Shown here piece after piece: positions 3,449 through 63,203 of a stretch of DNA of 64,000 bases (position 1 is its first letter; every line of letters begins with the position of its first letter). The notes beneath the pieces are model-generated. The model was not told the origin of the DNA and did not search any database. It saw only the letters and a list, made by a program, of their open reading frames with translations. Origin of the DNA: Symbiobacteriaceae bacterium (lineage in GTDB: Bacteria > Bacillota > Sulfobacillia > Symbiobacteriales > Symbiobacteriaceae); contig JARBUG010000010.1 of assembly GCA_029239785.1 (NCBI GenBank), forward strand, positions 287-64,286, written 5' to 3'. The position numbers and the translations under genes are program-made.

Positions 3449-3560
3449 CAGTTTGGGCCTTCGGCAACCCCGCTACCGTGGCCCGTGGCGGGCTGTAGGC
3501 CGGAGGCTTTGCGACCCCGACTTTCGCCGGGTGTGCCTTTTCGGTGACACCAAGGTCAGG
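3449..3560 (-). promoter_or_regulatory. Structured leader with antiterminator pairing (candidate riboswitch or sRNA, ligand unknown)
   Basis: CCUACAGCCC (3499..3490) can pair with GGGCUGUAG (3431..3423), which is the 3' arm of the terminator. GCCUCCGG (3507..3500) is complementary to the downstream SD. Confidence 0.3.
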
Positions 3561-13534: not shown

Positions 13535-13562
13535 CTCAGCGCCAACGCTGAGAACTTTTTTC
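13535..13562 (+). terminator. Intrinsic terminator
   Basis: CTCAGCG-ccaa-CGCTGAG followed by AACTTTTTT. Confidence 0.6.
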
Positions 13563-13623: not shown

Positions 13624-14613
13624 GTGAGCGACATAGATGTGAAGGTGCCCGGTGCGTTGCTCCTGGAACAGTCTCTGACTCCATCGGCCAAACTCCTCTG
13701 GATGGTGCTCCAAACCTCCCACCAGAAAGAACCGACCCGCCTGCTCTCACGATCCGGTCTGTCTCGCCAGTCGGTGCTGCGAGGGCTTGCGCAACTGAGG
13801 GCATCGGGCTGGGGCGGGCCGACTGGCGCCACCTATTCAGGATGTGCGGTGGTTCCGGTTGATCTCATTGGCGACCGGCGGGTACGTGCACAGGGAAAGT
13901 TGGTCTACGCCCATCTCGCGCTGGAGTCCGGGGGTGGCCCCGGGGAGTTCACCTACCCTGATCTTGCTCTCAGCACCGGACGCGGCCCAAACACCCTGAA
14001 GCGCGCGATCGGCGACTTGCGCGCTCATGGATGGATACAGACCGTGCAGACGCATCGGACCGGTCCCACCAGGTTTGCTCTGCGCAATCCGACGGCCGAG
14101 CGGCAAGCATCGGAGGTCGCAATGGTCAAACGCCGCGTTGAGAAAGCAGAGAATGTCGGCGAACAGATCATGCGCGAGTTCCTCTCGCTGCTGGTCGATA
14201 GTGATGAGTATGAGGACGAATCGGCCCCGGGGTTTCTGGTCAATCCGCTCAGCGGCGAGCTGTTGCGCTACGACCGCTACTACCCGCCTCGGGTTGGGGT
14301 GGAGTTCAACGGCCCGCAGCACTATGGCCCGACGGACCGCTATCCTGATCCGCAACAGGCCGCCCAGCAGCAAGCTCGTGACTATATGAAGATCGGCTTG
14401 AGCGTGCGCAAAGGCATGGCTGTCGTGGTTGTGCACGCCGAGGACTTGTCGCTGGCGGGTATGCGGGCGAAGGTGGAGGGCCTGCTCCCGCTGCGGAATC
14501 TGAAGAACCACGGGCAGCTGGCGGAGTACCTGGAGAAGGTCGGGCGCCGGTATCGGGCGAAGGTGGCCAGGGAAGGGCGGCTGGCGACCGAGAGACAGCA
14601 ACGGACCAGTTGA
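13624..14613 (+). CDS. wHTH protein with C-terminal Vsr/DUF559-like (PD-(D/E)XK-type) nuclease domain (putative)
   Basis: 329 aa. The C-terminal block NPLSGELLRYDRYYPPRVGVEFNGPQH resembles the D...ExDGxxH core of Vsr/DUF559 enzymes. A paralog lies at 61756..62711. Confidence 0.6.
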   Translation: MSDIDVKVPGALLLEQSLTPSAKLLWMVLQTSHQKEPTRLLSRSGLSRQSVLRGLAQLRASGWGGPTGATYSGCAVVPVDLIGDRRVRAQGKLVYAHLALESGGGPGEFTYPDLALSTGRGPNTLKRAIGDLRAHGWIQTVQTHRTGPTRFALRNPTAERQASEVAMVKRRVEKAENVGEQIMREFLSLLVDSDEYEDESAPGFLVNPLSGELLRYDRYYPPRVGVEFNGPQHYGPTDRYPDPQQAAQQQARDYMKIGLSVRKGMAVVVVHAEDLSLAGMRAKVEGLLPLRNLKNHGQLAEYLEKVGRRYRAKVAREGRLATERQQRTS

Positions 14614-14619
14614 GGTAAC

Positions 14620-14658
14620 GGGCATGCGTCCCAGGGGGATGCATGCCCGCTTTTGTTG
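14620..14658 (+). terminator. Intrinsic terminator
   Basis: GGGCATGC-13 nt-GCATGCCC followed by GCTTTTGTTG. Confidence 0.75.
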
Positions 14659-14663
14659 ACTCC

Positions 14664-14857
14664 GTCCGATTTGGAATGGTGGGGCGTCGGTGGAGGTTTC
14701 CAAATCAGACGCAAACGGGCCTTACGGACGCATCTATGGGGGTCATTGACCCAGGTTCGGCGGTTTTCGGGCCCGAGGCGGAGCAAAAACGCCGTCTCAC
14801 GAGACGTAGCGTCCGATATGGAATGGATCGGTCTCCCTGAGGTATTCCAAAGTGGAC
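14664..14857. repeat. Two related hairpins (GTCCGAT-TGGAA stems)
   Basis: GTCCGATTTGGAA / TTCCAAATCAGAC (14664..14710) and GTCCGATATGGAAT / ATTCCAAAGTGGAC (14811..14857). Confidence 0.6.
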
Positions 14858-14871
14858 GTAGCCCGTGGCGT

Positions 14872-17628: not shown

Positions 17629-17772
17629 TAGACCCTCTCGGCATGGGCCGGTCAAGCTTTGGCCCACGCCTGCCGGGCTACGGCACCCATTGAGGGTGCC
17701 TAGACCCTCTCGGCATGGGCCGGTCAAGCTTTGGCCCACGCCTGCCGGGCTACGGCACCCATTGAGGGTGCC
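17629..17772. repeat. Perfect 72-bp tandem duplication (2 copies) in the pheS-pheT spacer
   Basis: 17629..17700 is identical to 17701..17772, and the next 4 nt (TAGA) begin a third unit. The unit contains the hairpin GGCACCC-tcaa-TGGGTGCC. Confidence 0.95.
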
Positions 17773-32357: not shown

Positions 32358-34110
32358 CGCCCTCCAGGATGGCCCGGAACTCATCGGAAGCGGCCAGCAG
32401 CTGCGGGGCGGTACCGATCATCTCCACCCGCCCCTGGCTCATCAACAGAATCTGATCTGCCGCCTCCAGCACCGCCGGCCGGTGGGAGACCGCCAGGCAG
32501 GTTGTTTCTTTGCGCGCCCGCAGCCGCTCCCACAGTTTCTCCTCCGTCTCCTCATCCAGGGCACTGGAGAGATCATCAAAGACGAGCAGCTCCGGTTCCC
32601 GCACAAACATGCGGGCGGCGGCAGTTCGCTGCACCTGCCCGCCCGACAGCTTCACGCCCCGGGCGCCCACCTCGGTCTCCAGCCGTTTCTCCAGACCTGC
32701 CACATCCTGCTCCAGCACGGCGGCGTGCACGGCCCCGGCCAGATCAGCCTCCGCCTCGGGCAGCCCGAGCAGAATGTTCTCCTTCAGCGTGGCGCTGAAG
32801 AGCACAGGCACCTGCGGCGTGTAGCTGCTAATGGGCGGCTGGAAGAACGAACCCGGGTGGTCAACCACGCGGCCGTTCCAGTGCACCGCTCCACCCTGTG
32901 CGGGCAGCAGCCCCAGCAGCGCCCGCAGCAACGTGCTTTTCCCGGAGCCAACCCGGCCGGTGATCACCGTCAGCGTGCCGCGGGTGAGCGTGAACGTGGC
33001 CCCCCGGACGCCCCGCCCCGAGTCCGGGTACTCGTAGGTCAGGTCCTCCACCTCCAGCCGGTTCAGCCGCTCCTCCGGCTGAAGTGAGCGCCGGTGGCGC
33101 TCCGGCAGGGGAGTATCCAGATAGAGCGGGCTATGCGCCGCCAGGGCCACAGCCGGCGCATCCTCCAGCAACGCCTGCATCCGCCGTAAGGAGACACCCA
33201 TCTGCTTGTAACTGGCCAGCAGATCGCCTACGACGCCGGTAAACCCCGCCAGCCGCCCGACATAGGCCGCAAACAACGCAAAGTCGCCCACAGTAAAGGT
33301 GCCGGACCGCATCGATCCCGCCGCCAGCAACAGTACCAGGCCCGTGCCCAGGTTGGCGGTGTTCAGATAGACCGACCGGAGCAGCTCGGTGAACAGGCTG
33401 TCCTGCACGGCATGGGCCCGCCGCTGGTCTCCCAGACGGCGCAGGTGGCCGGCCACGTTCGCCTCGGCGCCGGCCAGCTTCAGCGCGGGCACCATGGTGA
33501 AAATCTCGCCGAGCATCCCCGTCACCCGGGCGGCGGCGGTCCGGCTCCGGTCGCGGTACCGGCCGATTCGCTGTCCCGCAGCCTTTGCCACAATCATCAC
33601 CCCGACGAGGGGCAGCACGGCCGCAACCGTCACAAACGCGTTGATATGTAGCATGAGCCCCAGCGTGACGCCTGCGCTCAAGGCCTCGGCGACGGCGCTG
33701 ATCACTGTGATCATCGAAGCGAACAGCGCTACGGCGTCGGCATCGTCGCGAAAGCGGCTGATCGCATCGCCGGTCGACCCGGGCAGGGCCCGGGCGCCGG
33801 GCCGGCGCAGGATCTGCTCCAGCATATTGGTAGTGAGCAGTGCGCTGACCGTAAAGCGCTGGAGCACACTGACGGGCACGCTGAGCCAGGTAACCAGCAG
33901 GCGCCCGCTCTGCACGGCGACGGGCAGCACGGCCAACAGCCAGAGGCTGTCTAGAGCCGGTGCGCTGCCCGACAGGGCATTGAAGAAGGACCGGGCCACC
34001 AGACCGAGCCCGGTCGGCGTCAGGGAGATCAGCACCCAACTGAGAAAGCAGGCGGCCACCAGCCAGGGCCGGTATGCCAGCAGGCGGAGCACAGTTCGCC
34101 ACGGTTTCAT
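32344..34110 (-). CDS. ABC exporter, fused TMD-NBD subunit
   Basis: 588 aa. GRVGSGKSTLL, LSGGQVQR and LLVFDDLSSALD, with an N-terminal 6-TM domain. Confidence 0.9.
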   Translation of the reverse strand: MKPWRTVLRLLAYRPWLVAACFLSWVLISLTPTGLGLVARSFFNALSGSAPALDSLWLLAVLPVAVQSGRLLVTWLSVPVSVLQRFTVSALLTTNMLEQILRRPGARALPGSTGDAISRFRDDADAVALFASMITVISAVAEALSAGVTLGLMLHINAFVTVAAVLPLVGVMIVAKAAGQRIGRYRDRSRTAAARVTGMLGEIFTMVPALKLAGAEANVAGHLRRLGDQRRAHAVQDSLFTELLRSVYLNTANLGTGLVLLLAAGSMRSGTFTVGDFALFAAYVGRLAGFTGVVGDLLASYKQMGVSLRRMQALLEDAPAVALAAHSPLYLDTPLPERHRRSLQPEERLNRLEVEDLTYEYPDSGRGVRGATFTLTRGTLTVITGRVGSGKSTLLRALLGLLPAQGGAVHWNGRVVDHPGSFFQPPISSYTPQVPVLFSATLKENILLGLPEAEADLAGAVHAAVLEQDVAGLEKRLETEVGARGVKLSGGQVQRTAAARMFVREPELLVFDDLSSALDEETEEKLWERLRARKETTCLAVSHRPAVLEAADQILLMSQGRVEMIGTAPQLLAASDEFRAILEGDRTH

Positions 34111-61090: not shown

Positions 61091-61420
61091 ACGCCCGCCC
61101 GGCGGCCGGCGCCCGTAGGGCGCCAAACTAGACGATTCCCTGGGTTAGCGGCCATCGGTCTGTTTTTATCCAGCGGATTCGCAGTGCACCGTGCGAAACG
61201 GACCGATGAAGGCCGCTAACGCCGAAGGCGTGCCTGTGGGACCGGGGGGAGTCCGGTCAGGAAGGAGGTTCAGTGCGTTTGCGGCGTTGATAAGTCCGTT
61301 CTTGTACAGGGTCGGTTGATCGGCCGGACTAAATCGGACTTGGGCGCCCTGCGGGCGCCGACCTCCTGGCTACCCTTCCCGGCGCCAGGCCCAAGGCACC
61401 CGGCCCAGCGGGGCGAATCG
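61091..61420. repeat. ~330-bp long-palindrome unit, copy A
   Basis: Tandem with copy B. It contains ATCGGTCTGTTTTTATCC...AAACGGACCGATGAAGGCCGCTAACGC and the inverted partner GCGTTTGCGGCG...AGTCCGTTCTTGTAC. Confidence 0.8.
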
Positions 61421-61745
61421 TGCCTGGCGGCCGGCGCCGTAGGGCGCCAAAGTAGACGATTCCCTGGGTTAGCGGCCATCGGTCTGTTTTTGTCCAGCCG
61501 ATTCGCAGTGCACCGTGCGAAACGGACCGATGAAGGCCGCAAACGCCGAAGGCGGGCCCGGGGGACCGGGGGGAACGTGGCCCCGAAGGGCACTTAATAC
61601 GTTTGCGGCCTCGATCAGTCCGTTCTTGTACGGTGGGAGCTGCGTCGGCTGGACAATAACGGACTGTGGCGGGGGGCAACACCAGTCGGGCGTTGGGAGA
61701 AGTCTACTTTGGCGCCCTGCGGGCGTCGGCCCCCCGCCCCCTCTT
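61421..61745. repeat. ~325-bp long-palindrome unit, copy B
   Basis: The first ~135 nt are near-identical to copy A. Arms of ~115 bp run from GTAGGGCGCCAAAGTAGAC to GTCTACTTTGGCGCCCTGC. Confidence 0.8.
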
Positions 61746-61755
61746 CATACCCCGT

Positions 61756-62711
61756 TCAGGCCCGGTAGCTCTTACCCACACCCTCCAAATACCTGACCAC
61801 TTTCTCAAGTCCAGTCAGGTCCCGCAAGGTCAGGAGCGTCCCAACCTTCTGCTTCATCACGCTCAGAGATAGCTCCTCGCGGCGGACCTCGACCAGGGCA
61901 ATACCTTCCTTGGCACAGATTCCCCGCTTCATCAGGTCGCGCGCCTCCTGGCTGCGGACCTCCTTCTCAGTGAACTGGTCTGTGTTGCCATCGTGATGCG
62001 GTCCCTGAAACTCAAAAGCCGCCACATGCGGGTAGTAGCGGTCAAACTCCATGCGCTCTCCCGTCCACGGATTGATGAGCACGCCTACCTTCACATTATC
62101 CTGGTACTCCATCGAGTCGATCAACAGGGTCAAATACTCCTGCATGATCGCCTCACCTTTGTGCTTGGCACGCTTGATCCGCCACTGGGCTTTCTTAACC
62201 CACGCGTCTGCCGCTACGGCCTGTGGGTTGACCAAGACAAATTCGATGGGGGCACGCTTATGGCGCTGACAGATTCGCAGCCACTCCGCTGCCGCTAACT
62301 CCAAAAGCGACCGCTTCACCGTATTGATACCGGCTCCCGCCAACCTACTCAGGACCATGTGGGTGAACCGGCCAGTCTGGTCTTCGGCACAGAACTTCGG
62401 CAGCGCCTGGAGCATTCCGTATAAGACCCTCGCCCGGGCGCCGATCCGGCGGTCGAGGAGTAGGTACACCGGCATGGAAGCTGCCTTGGCAGCCCAGGCG
62501 GGCCCCACCGGTGGTGCCCAGCCCGTTGCAACCAGCTGCCGGCATGCTGTTCGCACGGTATGGCGAAACAGACCTGAGTCAGAGGCAGGATCGATGGTTC
62601 TGGTGTGATGCTGCGTGCGGCCGCCTGCAGCATCCAGATTAGTTTGGCAGATGCAGTAAGGTCAGGATGGAGCAGCAAAGCAAACGGTACCCTGATGATG
62701 CTGGTCTCCAT
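61756..62711 (-). pseudogene. Frameshifted paralog of the wHTH/Vsr-like nuclease gene (8-nt insertion)
   Basis: ATG 62711 (GGAGGTG RBS) gives METSIIRVPFALLLHPDLTASAKLIWMLQ, then the frame is lost. Homology resumes in another frame (TQHHTRTIDPASDSGLFRHTVRTACRQLVATGW...). Removing GCGGCCGC (62617..62624) restores a 316-codon ORF colinear with 13624..14613. Confidence 0.7.
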
Positions 62712-62755: not shown

Positions 62756-62821
62756 AACAGCCGTTCCGTTCCGGAACTGGTGCTTGTTCGACGAGATTCG
62801 ACTCCGTCAGCGACGAAGGGT

Positions 62822-63030
62822 GCAAAGTCGGGCATCGATCTGTTTTTGTCCACGGTTCTGATGATGCACCGTGCTAGACGGACCGATGAAGGCCGCAGAC
62901 GCTGAAGTTGGCTCCGCAGAACCGGAGAAATCTGCGTCCGGAAGGGAGTTAGTGCGTTTGCGACTTCCATAAGTCCGCCATTGTACAGGTAGTTTGACTG
63001 GGCTGGACAAAAACGGACCGATGCCGGGGG
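62822..63030. repeat. Long palindromic element, copy C
   Basis: ATCGATCTGTTTTTGTCC...GACGGACCGATGAAGGCCGCAGACGC / GCGTTTGCGAC...GGACAAAAACGGACCGAT. Confidence 0.75.
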
Positions 63031-63032
63031 CA

Positions 63033-63180
63033 GCGCCGGCAGGGCGCCGGCCCAGGGGCGCCGGCCCTGCGGGCGCCGGCCCAGGGGCGCCGGCCCTGCG
63101 GGCGCCGGCCCTGCGGGCGCCGGCCCAGGGGCGCCGGCCCAGGGGCGCCGGCCCAGGGGCGCCGGCCCAGGGGCGCCGGC
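63033..63180. repeat. Array of nine 15-bp GC-rich tandem units (two variants)
   Basis: GCGCCGGCCCAGGGG (A) and GCGCCGGCCCTGCGG (B) in the order A B A B B A A A A. No spacers. Confidence 0.9.
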
Positions 63181-63203
63181 CACTGAGAACCCCCAACACC
63201 AGC

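Follow-up and report, generated by a model that had tools for sequence, protein, structure and literature searches.

Phage homing endonucleases of the EDxHD type, such as I-Bth0305I, join an N-terminal DNA-binding region of the helix-turn-helix (HTH) type to a C-terminal nuclease resembling the very-short-patch-repair enzyme Vsr. Published work has equated the Vsr residues E25/D51/F62/H64/H69/D97 with E170/D196/an acidic residue/N208/H213/D222 of I-Bth0305I (PMC3239194). Here, we consider a gene of comparable build in a 64,000-nucleotide stretch of contig JARBUG010000010.1 (the window), which belongs to a 5.5-Mb Symbiobacteriaceae metagenome-assembled genome (MAG) of 302 contigs; all other genomes involved are also MAGs. 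The gene (copy 1, P0001, contig label C247a) occupies 13624..14613 on the plus strand, where the initial annotation had placed a 329-amino-acid (aa) open reading frame (ORF), and its frame is intact, encoding two winged-helix domains followed by a Vsr-like nuclease. With moderate confidence, we read it as encoding a bipartite, sequence-specific DNA endonuclease and as behaving like a selfish mobile gene within the Symbiobacteriaceae-Limnochordia lineage. Neither the nuclease fold nor the bipartite logic is new, but the double winged-helix head, the chromosomal multicopy lifestyle, and the transposon-like elements are. I-Bth0305I has NUMOD motifs where this family has two winged-helix domains, and its sequence similarity to the family is marginal. 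Homing endonuclease genes lie in self-splicing introns or inteins or stand free beside their cognate cleavage site. The genes described here are outside introns and inteins, being free-standing, chromosomal, and multicopy, and, in one genome, are carried by transposon-like elements.

Domain architecture and predicted active site

The winged-helix-like region that had been proposed at the N terminus is borne out as two such domains, both by Pfam HTH matches and by an AlphaFold2 model of the full-length protein built from a 52-homologue alignment (predicted local distance difference test [pLDDT] score of 94.5, predicted template modeling score of 0.87). Domain 1 (residues ~5 to 60; 13636..13803, plus strand) matches HTH_36 (E value of 1.1e-6, residues 18 to 63), and domain 2 (residues ~74 to 153; 13843..14082, plus strand) matches HTH_Crp_2/HVO_A0261_N (E value of ~1e-4, residues 109 to 142). 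In the model, these domains are followed by a long linker helix, an alpha-beta-beta-beta-alpha-beta domain, and a long C-terminal helix. A Foldseek search of the PDB with the full-length model returned winged-helix proteins only, and the two-domain module aligned with the iteron-binding initiators RepE54 (7sgc_C; E value of 0.063, template modeling [TM] score of 0.31, 218 columns) and Rep (8ac8_A; E value of 0.092). Such Rep-like structural matches were weak overall (TM scores of 0.27 to 0.31, E values of 0.06 to 0.09); the Pfam models Rep and Rep_3 gave no match, an NCBIfam STY4528 replication-protein match fell far under the cutoff, and PHROG matches to "replication initiation protein" were weak. 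The family resembles iteron initiators (RepE, RepA, and pi) in its tandem winged-helix arrangement and, in the Limnochordia elements described below, has tandem direct repeats beside the gene. Unlike those initiators, it is nuclease fused, chromosomal, and multicopy, with no plasmid location, and the Limnochordia repeat units measure 94 to 410 bp, compared to ~20 bp for iterons.

Because winged-helix matches dominate the full-length Foldseek search, the nuclease domain was modeled separately (pLDDT of 94.8). The core (residues ~176 to 290; 14149..14493, plus strand) runs through a helix at 178 to 190, strands at 197 to 200, 216 to 220, and 224 to 228, a helix at 243 to 262, and a strand at 266 to 270, which is the alpha-beta-beta-beta-alpha-beta core of the restriction-endonuclease-like fold. 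Against BFVD, a database of predicted viral structures, the isolated domain gave 66 matches at an E value of ≤1e-3, all with a probability of 1.0. Among them were proteins named "VSR endonuclease" (Enterococcus phage iF6) and "Homing endonuclease" (phages EFP01, Bobb, and Eldridge), as well as DUF2726 and DUF559 proteins and giant-virus "restriction endonucleases." The best compact match in the PDB was the catalytic domain of I-Bth0305I (3r3p_B; probability of 0.80, target-normalized TM score of 0.57, root mean square deviation of 3.9 Å over 98 columns); E. coli Vsr (1cw0 and 1vsr) was also matched, as was, more weakly and farther down the list, TnsA (1t0f). Family members likewise match phrog_9084, annotated as "homing endonuclease," with E values of 1.6e-8 (P0020), 4.6e-5 (copy 2, the broken paralogue of the window described below), and 4e-3 (copy 1).

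The predicted catalytic residues of copy 1 are E180 (14161), D217 (14272), E227 (14302), N229 (14308), H233 (14320), and D253 (14380). The sequence register pairs these six with the published catalytic set (PMC3239194), and all are conserved: across 52 full-length homologues, E180, D217, R218, E227, G230, H233, T237, R252, D253, and K256 are invariant, and position 229 is Asn or Gln only. N229 sits where Vsr has His64, as does N208 of I-Bth0305I, so that the two families agree in the series E, D, acidic, N, H, D. The C-terminal block FDRYYP..EF(N/Q)GP.H...ARD.MK, which had been picked out as common to both copies in the window, is indeed found in both and is invariant or nearly so in the 52 homologues. 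When hhalign compares the family with DUF559 sequences aligned from 11 same-class genomes, D217 falls on the Asp of vDF, E227-x-N229-G-x-x-H233 on ExDGxxH, and R252-D253 on the downstream Asp. With DUF559 (PF04480), Vsr (PF03852), and DUF2726 (PF10881), then, the family has in common the core fold and the pattern D...ExDGxxH...D/RD, here D217...E227xN229GxxH233...R252 D253. It differs from them in having Asn or Gln for the Asp of ExDG and in adding an N-terminal helix with an invariant Glu and a long C-terminal helix. Since fold, PHROG match, hhalign register, and catalytic conservation concur, the Vsr/DUF559-like nuclease proposed for this gene is correctly assigned. These results place the domain in the Vsr/DUF559/EDxHD branch of the PD-(D/E)XK superfamily, as a divergent member outside curated models. 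We infer that the protein cuts DNA.

Curated resources capture little of this. The isolated C-terminal domain matched neither PF03852 nor PF04480, even at an E value of ≤10, and a PF04480 search of this genome found nothing. Pfam and NCBIfam searches of the proteins returned HTH models and a weak, subthreshold match to PF10881, seen in 8 of 52 family members and in copy 2, while the isolated domain was without any match and no Pfam transposase domain was found in the family proteins. Nor did a hidden Markov model of the domain alignment find anything among PDB sequences. The domain profile retrieved from 1.84 billion proteins 289 cluster representatives (50% identity) at an E value of ≤1e-30, which we take as the family proper, and 11,197 representatives at ≤1e-3. 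Public records name family proteins "helix-turn-helix domain-containing protein" or "hypothetical protein," and a literature search found no description of this winged-helix plus Vsr-like family. A winged-helix plus DUF559 architecture is common in Actinobacteria. Even on a cautious reading, then, an unannotated domain family is defined here, with a fold and predicted catalytic residues.

The same domain also occurs in a different protein context. A 342-aa ORF elsewhere in this genome (C88:41107-41334) has the nuclease core only (..LELDLYLPERRAALEYQGQQHF...ARDSRK..), matching the family profile with an E value of 9.5e-11. Its N-terminal part is different, the ORF has no Pfam match, and similar ORFs are found in three relatives; together they make up another family that carries this domain and is more distantly related.

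Copies, decay, and dispersal in Symbiobacteriaceae

A tblastn search of this genome returned 13 pieces, which by eye resolve into ~5 intact and ~5 broken copies. The intact ones are copy 1, C61, C293, C221, and C64; the broken ones are copy 2 (C247b, with an 8-nucleotide [nt] insertion), C17 and C191 (internal deletions/frameshifts), and C133 and C200 (truncated). Homologues of copy 1 (n = 80; 35 to 52% identity) are recorded under the names Symbiobacteriaceae, Symbiobacterium, Thermaerobacter, Limnochordia, and "Bacillota/Clostridia bacterium," and the range of the family is confined to Symbiobacteriaceae, Limnochordia, and Thermaerobacter. Each of 14 further genomes that were sampled within this taxonomic family has the gene, with 1 to 14 matches, many of them fragments, and in the remainder of the class the family is patchy. 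Copies are intergenic, free-standing, and nonsyntenic, amid housekeeping genes. Of nine loci in a genome of the same genus, only one is syntenic with a locus here, namely, that of the pseudogene, copy 2.

In a tree of the family, the paralogues of different Symbiobacteriaceae genomes intermingle, and their branches are long. Close neighbors in the tree, from one genome or from two, have DNA in common across the gene and no more than ~350 bp beyond it, and the dispersing unit is therefore essentially the gene. Between the paralogues C293 and C221 of this genome, no inverted-repeat ends and no target duplications were found. The proposal that these are selfish genes resembling those of homing endonucleases fits the variation in copy number, the decay, the lack of synteny, and the Limnochordia elements with 9-bp duplications described below.

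Copy 2 (61756..62711, minus strand) illustrates the decay. The initial annotation had read it as a second gene of the same type, and the paralogy stands (40% identity over 261 aa, E value of 8e-65 by BLASTP), as does an N-terminal ..VP.ALLL...LT.SAKL.WM.. block common to both copies; it is not, however, an intact gene. Its length of 956 nt is not divisible by 3, and its sequence is divided between ORFs 62349..62711 and 61756..62556. The match to copy 1 stays in the frame of the ATG at 62711 until ..KLIWMLQ (codon Q) and restarts in the frame of 61756..62556 at TQHH..SDSGLF.. (codon T), colinear with LQTSHQ..SRSGLS.. of copy 1. The gap between the two frames is filled exactly by an 8-nt insertion, GCGGCCGC (62617..62624, minus strand), which breaks the frame. 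To judge from the reading frames, copy 2 is dead, apparently killed by this insertion. The inserted octamer is itself palindromic and lies within the near-palindrome GCTGCAG|GCGGCCGC|ACGCAGC. The neighbors of copy 2 are the gerA operon and the gene for CpsB, followed by the pseudogene.

In both this genome and the same-genus genome, a paralogue adjoins cpsB (copy 2; L106, G001:C49), where the cpsB products are 81% identical and the nucleases ~45%. Either the site next to cpsB is a recurrent insertion hot spot or the gene itself evolves very rapidly.

We asked whether these proteins could instead serve the host, as lineage-specific regulators or as repair/recombination nucleases that became multicopy by ordinary duplication. 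Copy 1 is an intact gene with a terminator of its own in housekeeping surroundings, winged-helix domains of the MarR/GntR/Crp type are typical of regulators, and old subfamilies are common to several genomes. However, roughly half of this genome's copies are broken, relatives range from 0 to 14 in copy number, synteny is almost absent, and in one genome near-identical copies with target duplications have arisen in bursts. The invariant catalytic set, moreover, speaks for an enzyme and not for a plain regulator. A host role as the general explanation of the family is therefore improbable in our estimation.

Transposon-like relatives in Limnochordia

The clearest signs of mobility come from outside the genome of the window, in a relative with ~34 to 38% protein identity. 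JBMNJG01, a long-read Limnochordia MAG of 3.6 Mb, holds more than 20 copies that form one clade and three bursts (groups A, B, and C), with DNA 90 to 96% identical, flanks included. Group B comprises at least 14 copies in elements of 2.5 to 4 kb. Their ends are GGGKSCACRCRNRAAAYYGCGG-like, the left reading GGGGCCACGCAAAAAACTGCGG.. and the right ..CCGCGATTTCACGTGTGCACCC; the two are complementary at 19 of 31 positions and so form imperfect terminal inverted repeats of ~30 bp. Exact 9-bp target duplications, unrelated to one another in sequence, bound four group B elements (CTTCGCGAA, AGCTGCTTG, CACGCCCGA, and ACCATACGG), and a 1.88-kb derivative from which most of the gene is gone keeps both ends and 8 of 9 positions of a duplication. 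Defined ends together with a target duplication were found in 5 of 7 complete group B elements. At least one lineage of the family travels as a discrete element, with 9-bp target duplications left at its insertion sites.

The interior of a group B element consists of 2 to 7 tandem units of ~410 bp, the gene, and ~330 bp more. The winged-helix nuclease is the sole credible ORF within it, and no transposase of a known catalytic class is encoded. A degenerate end consensus found 23 sites in JBMNJG01 (none with the reversed control), of which all but one were group B ends or copies just inside them. Because this consensus matches essentially group B ends alone, no partner insertion sequence is seen. 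The frame is intact in 20 of 22 copies across the three groups and in 12 of the 13 group B copies whose frame was examined, and pairwise ratios of nonsynonymous to synonymous substitution (dN/dS) of 0.17 in group A and 0.16 in group B indicate purifying selection.

Group A has seven copies. Its left boundary is a hairpin motif, GCATCGNCC..GGGYGATGTAACCG, and on its right are three to five tandem 94-bp units bearing the same hairpin; these units were found nowhere else in JBMNJG01 and are confined to the elements. By eye, the repeat units of groups A, B, and C (L049-L092) share a short motif near TAACCG, in the forms GATGTAACCGACC, TACATAACCGAAC, and ATATAACCGGACA, which may be a candidate binding site for the winged-helix domains.

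A -35 hexamer of the form TTGAC[AG] lies 11 to 20 nt downstream of the group B right end in 5 of 10 cases (L060-L073), compared to 1.7% of random 40-nt windows, and a -10-like hexamer follows ~17 nt beyond it. Five of 23 copies are located less than 1 kb upstream of tRNA genes or operons. These positions suggest that target choice in group B is promoter proximal.

Taken with the distribution and decay of the family, the gene is most likely a selfish, mobile, site-specific endonuclease gene. The two tandem winged-helix domains, in their Rep-initiator-like layout, would recognize a specific site, for which the element ends or the internal repeats are candidates. The C-terminal EDxHD PD-(D/E)XK domain would then nick or cut DNA in a metal-dependent manner, and this nuclease activity would propagate the gene. 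It might do so in one of three roles: as a true transposase, a homing-type nuclease whose breaks are repaired by the host, or cargo of an element moved by a DDE enzyme. We favor a direct role in mobility because no partner with matching ends was seen and because nearly all copies are under purifying selection, and we infer that the protein acts as the element-moving enzyme. We remain cautious about a transposase role because of the 9-bp duplication and the lack of precedent.

Several points weigh against the gene being a selfish mobile endonuclease. On the enzymatic side, Foldseek with the nuclease domain gave nothing under an E value of 0.1 in the PDB, and the hhalign comparison with DUF559 had an E value of 1.4e-3 and a probability of just 18%. 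In the genome of the window, no terminal inverted repeats or target duplications were seen at any copy; they were specifically looked for around copy 1, and none was found. The closest relative of copy 1 is at most 52% identical, with none above ~50% in the tree, and copy 1 may have a host function. MAG assembly may account for part of the copy numbers and breaks. Within JBMNJG01, 2 of 7 complete group B elements are without a target duplication, and neither target duplications nor inverted-repeat ends were seen in groups A and C. Furthermore, we know of no transposon whose sole enzyme is a PD-(D/E)XK nuclease. Target duplications of 9 bp usually point to a DDE transposase, and the gene may for that reason be cargo of a nonautonomous element.

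This last point leads to an account in which the nuclease is a passenger, an addiction, exclusion, or defense cargo of nonautonomous cassettes (compare the mobile insertion cassettes of Bacillus cereus) that are moved by a transposase recognizing the inverted-repeat ends and acting in trans. Not only the 9-bp duplications but also the terminal inverted repeats are typical of DDE transposases, the 1.88-kb derivative retains both ends and a target duplication with the gene mostly lost, and a transposase consisting of a PD-(D/E)XK nuclease alone is without precedent to our general knowledge. However, in the 3.6-Mb genome the end consensus leads to group B ends and no partner insertion sequence was seen, 12 of 13 group B copies are intact at a dN/dS of 0.16, and in other genomes the gene disperses alone, without shared flanks. 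Nor did the PADLOC defense library give a match, except a weak one to the winged-helix protein Csa3 in one homologue. On balance, we regard a passenger role as unlikely.

A bolder form of the selfish-gene reading is that the winged-helix plus Vsr-like nuclease is itself a transposase of a new class, which would recognize the ~30-bp ends and the internal iteron-like repeats, produce the 9-bp duplications, and insert 11 to 20 nt upstream of -35 boxes, often those of tRNA operons, with the genes of the window being old or domesticated members. We put this forward tentatively and think it somewhat doubtful as a whole. To our knowledge, the known transposase classes are DDE/RNase-H-like, HUH, serine, tyrosine, DEDD, and Cas1, and PD-(D/E)XK nucleases are known to us only as helpers in transposition (TnsA) or as homing endonucleases. 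Tn7 TnsA resembles the present protein in being a restriction-endonuclease-fold protein in transposition, with the weak structural match to 1t0f; it differs in that it partners the DDE protein TnsB, whereas the Limnochordia element encodes no second protein. If the protein alone does move the element, it would represent a new catalytic class in transposition and would link homing endonucleases with transposons. With element ends, target duplications, and a promoter-proximal preference known, a test system is at hand. Scaffolds of this kind, a compact nuclease joined to a modular DNA-binding head, have also been proposed for targeted nucleases (PMC3239194).

Both copies in the window are old members of the family. 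Copy 1 is solitary and intact, with no recognizable ends, and is either still active on some site or domesticated. No empty site can be defined for it, since synteny stops at the pheT stop codon in four relatives, in which the DNA 3′ of pheT is unrelated.

Repeats and other features of the window

The initial annotation had noted that both copies lie beside the hairpin and palindrome repeats of the window and, by analogy with systems of repetitive extragenic palindromic (REP) sequences and REP-associated tyrosine transposases (RAYTs), had raised the possibility of a repeat-processing enzyme linked to ATCGGTCYGTTTTT palindromes. For copy 2, the proximity is real: of three long imperfect palindromes of ~200 nt, R3 (62815..63030) is upstream of it and R1 (61113..61330) and R2 (61437..61680; DNA folding z-score of -7.4) are downstream. 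For copy 1, it is not, as the hairpins there are its own. H1 (14663..14711, plus strand; inverted repeat I6) lies 3′ of the gene, and H2 (14810..14858, plus strand) is a direct repeat of H1 147 bp farther downstream; both are locus specific, and their 17-mer arm, CGTCCGATWTGGAATGG, occurs in the whole 5.5-Mb genome at 14663 and 14810 only.

A genome-wide census of copies and flanking repeats likewise showed no association of the genes with the R palindromes. The motif ATCGGTCYGTTTTT occurs 6 times exactly and 15 times with at most one mismatch in 5.5 Mb, and the R family has ~8 loci. Sites away from copy 2 (24486, 39748, and 50761/50802 in the window and others on C66, C200, C105, C51, and C85) do not adjoin paralogues, and among ~10 paralogue loci only one, the pseudogene, lies among R repeats. 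No flank repeats were shared by other paralogues of this genome, and R-type repeats are absent at the syntenic paralogue in the same-genus genome. Direct repeats common to both flanks were absent from 27 non-Limnochordia loci and found only in Limnochordia group A. Repeats inside one flank showed a mild enrichment (6 of 54 flanks, compared to 7 of 216 control windows). Repeat arrays beside the gene are thus recurrent and not obligatory.

As a general rule, then, the REP/RAYT analogy fails, because neither the R repeats nor the locus-unique hairpins nor most flanks show an association. The likeness, a single gene beside hairpin repeats, is confined to copy 2, with one R repeat upstream and two downstream, and to Limnochordia group A, with its left hairpin and its right tandem 94-bp units bearing the same hairpin. 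REP/RAYT systems combine an HUH/Y1 enzyme with REPs dispersed through the genome, whereas the present protein has a different fold, the 94-bp units are not dispersed, and most members are free of repeats, including the other paralogues and the same-genus syntenic copy. With ~8 R loci in the genome and a pseudogene alone among them, we consider an enzyme acting on the window palindromes in the manner of a RAYT highly improbable. The R palindromes as a partner of the gene are rejected on the basis of the genome census and the same-genus syntenic locus.

Other repeats were observed near family members. Beside R3, upstream of copy 2, are arrays of G+C-rich tandem repeats with units of 14 to 15 bp (GGCGCCGGCCCAGGG / ..CTGCGG; 63013-63200), and an array of similar 15-bp units is found downstream of paralogue C221 at a distance of ~370 bp (C221 end, contig C43). 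On C200, ~0.5 kb upstream of the fragment at 32572-32991, is an unrelated repeat of ~200 bp with many copies on more than 20 contigs (C135, C255, C7, C239, and C256 among them), which looks like a miniature inverted-repeat transposable element family.

Copy 1 is preceded in the window by genes for a radical SAM protein, a CAAX protease, two ABC-2 permeases, and a GNAT acetyltransferase and followed by pheT. As had been stated, there is no transposase or integrase nearby; the neighbors of both copies are all housekeeping genes. Each copy had also been credited with promoter and terminator signals of its own. For copy 1, the terminator was confirmed, a strong intrinsic one directly 3′ of the stop codon (14619..14649, plus strand), with a 14-bp stem and then a T-run, while a consensus scan found no sigma-70-type promoter 5′ of the gene. 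A terminator-like hairpin 5′ of copy 1 (13535..13552, plus strand) leaves ~70 bp for a promoter and leader ahead of the start codon.

Two further features of the window were noted. A perfect 72-bp tandem duplication (17629-17772; two copies, 100% identical) overlaps the start of pheT (ATG at 17644, minus strand) and could be either an assembly artifact or a real duplication at the pheS-pheT junction. An Rfam search of the whole window gave no match to the repeats; its sole match was a cyclic di-GMP-I riboswitch aptamer (RF01051, 79.9 bits) at 3460-3547 on the minus strand.

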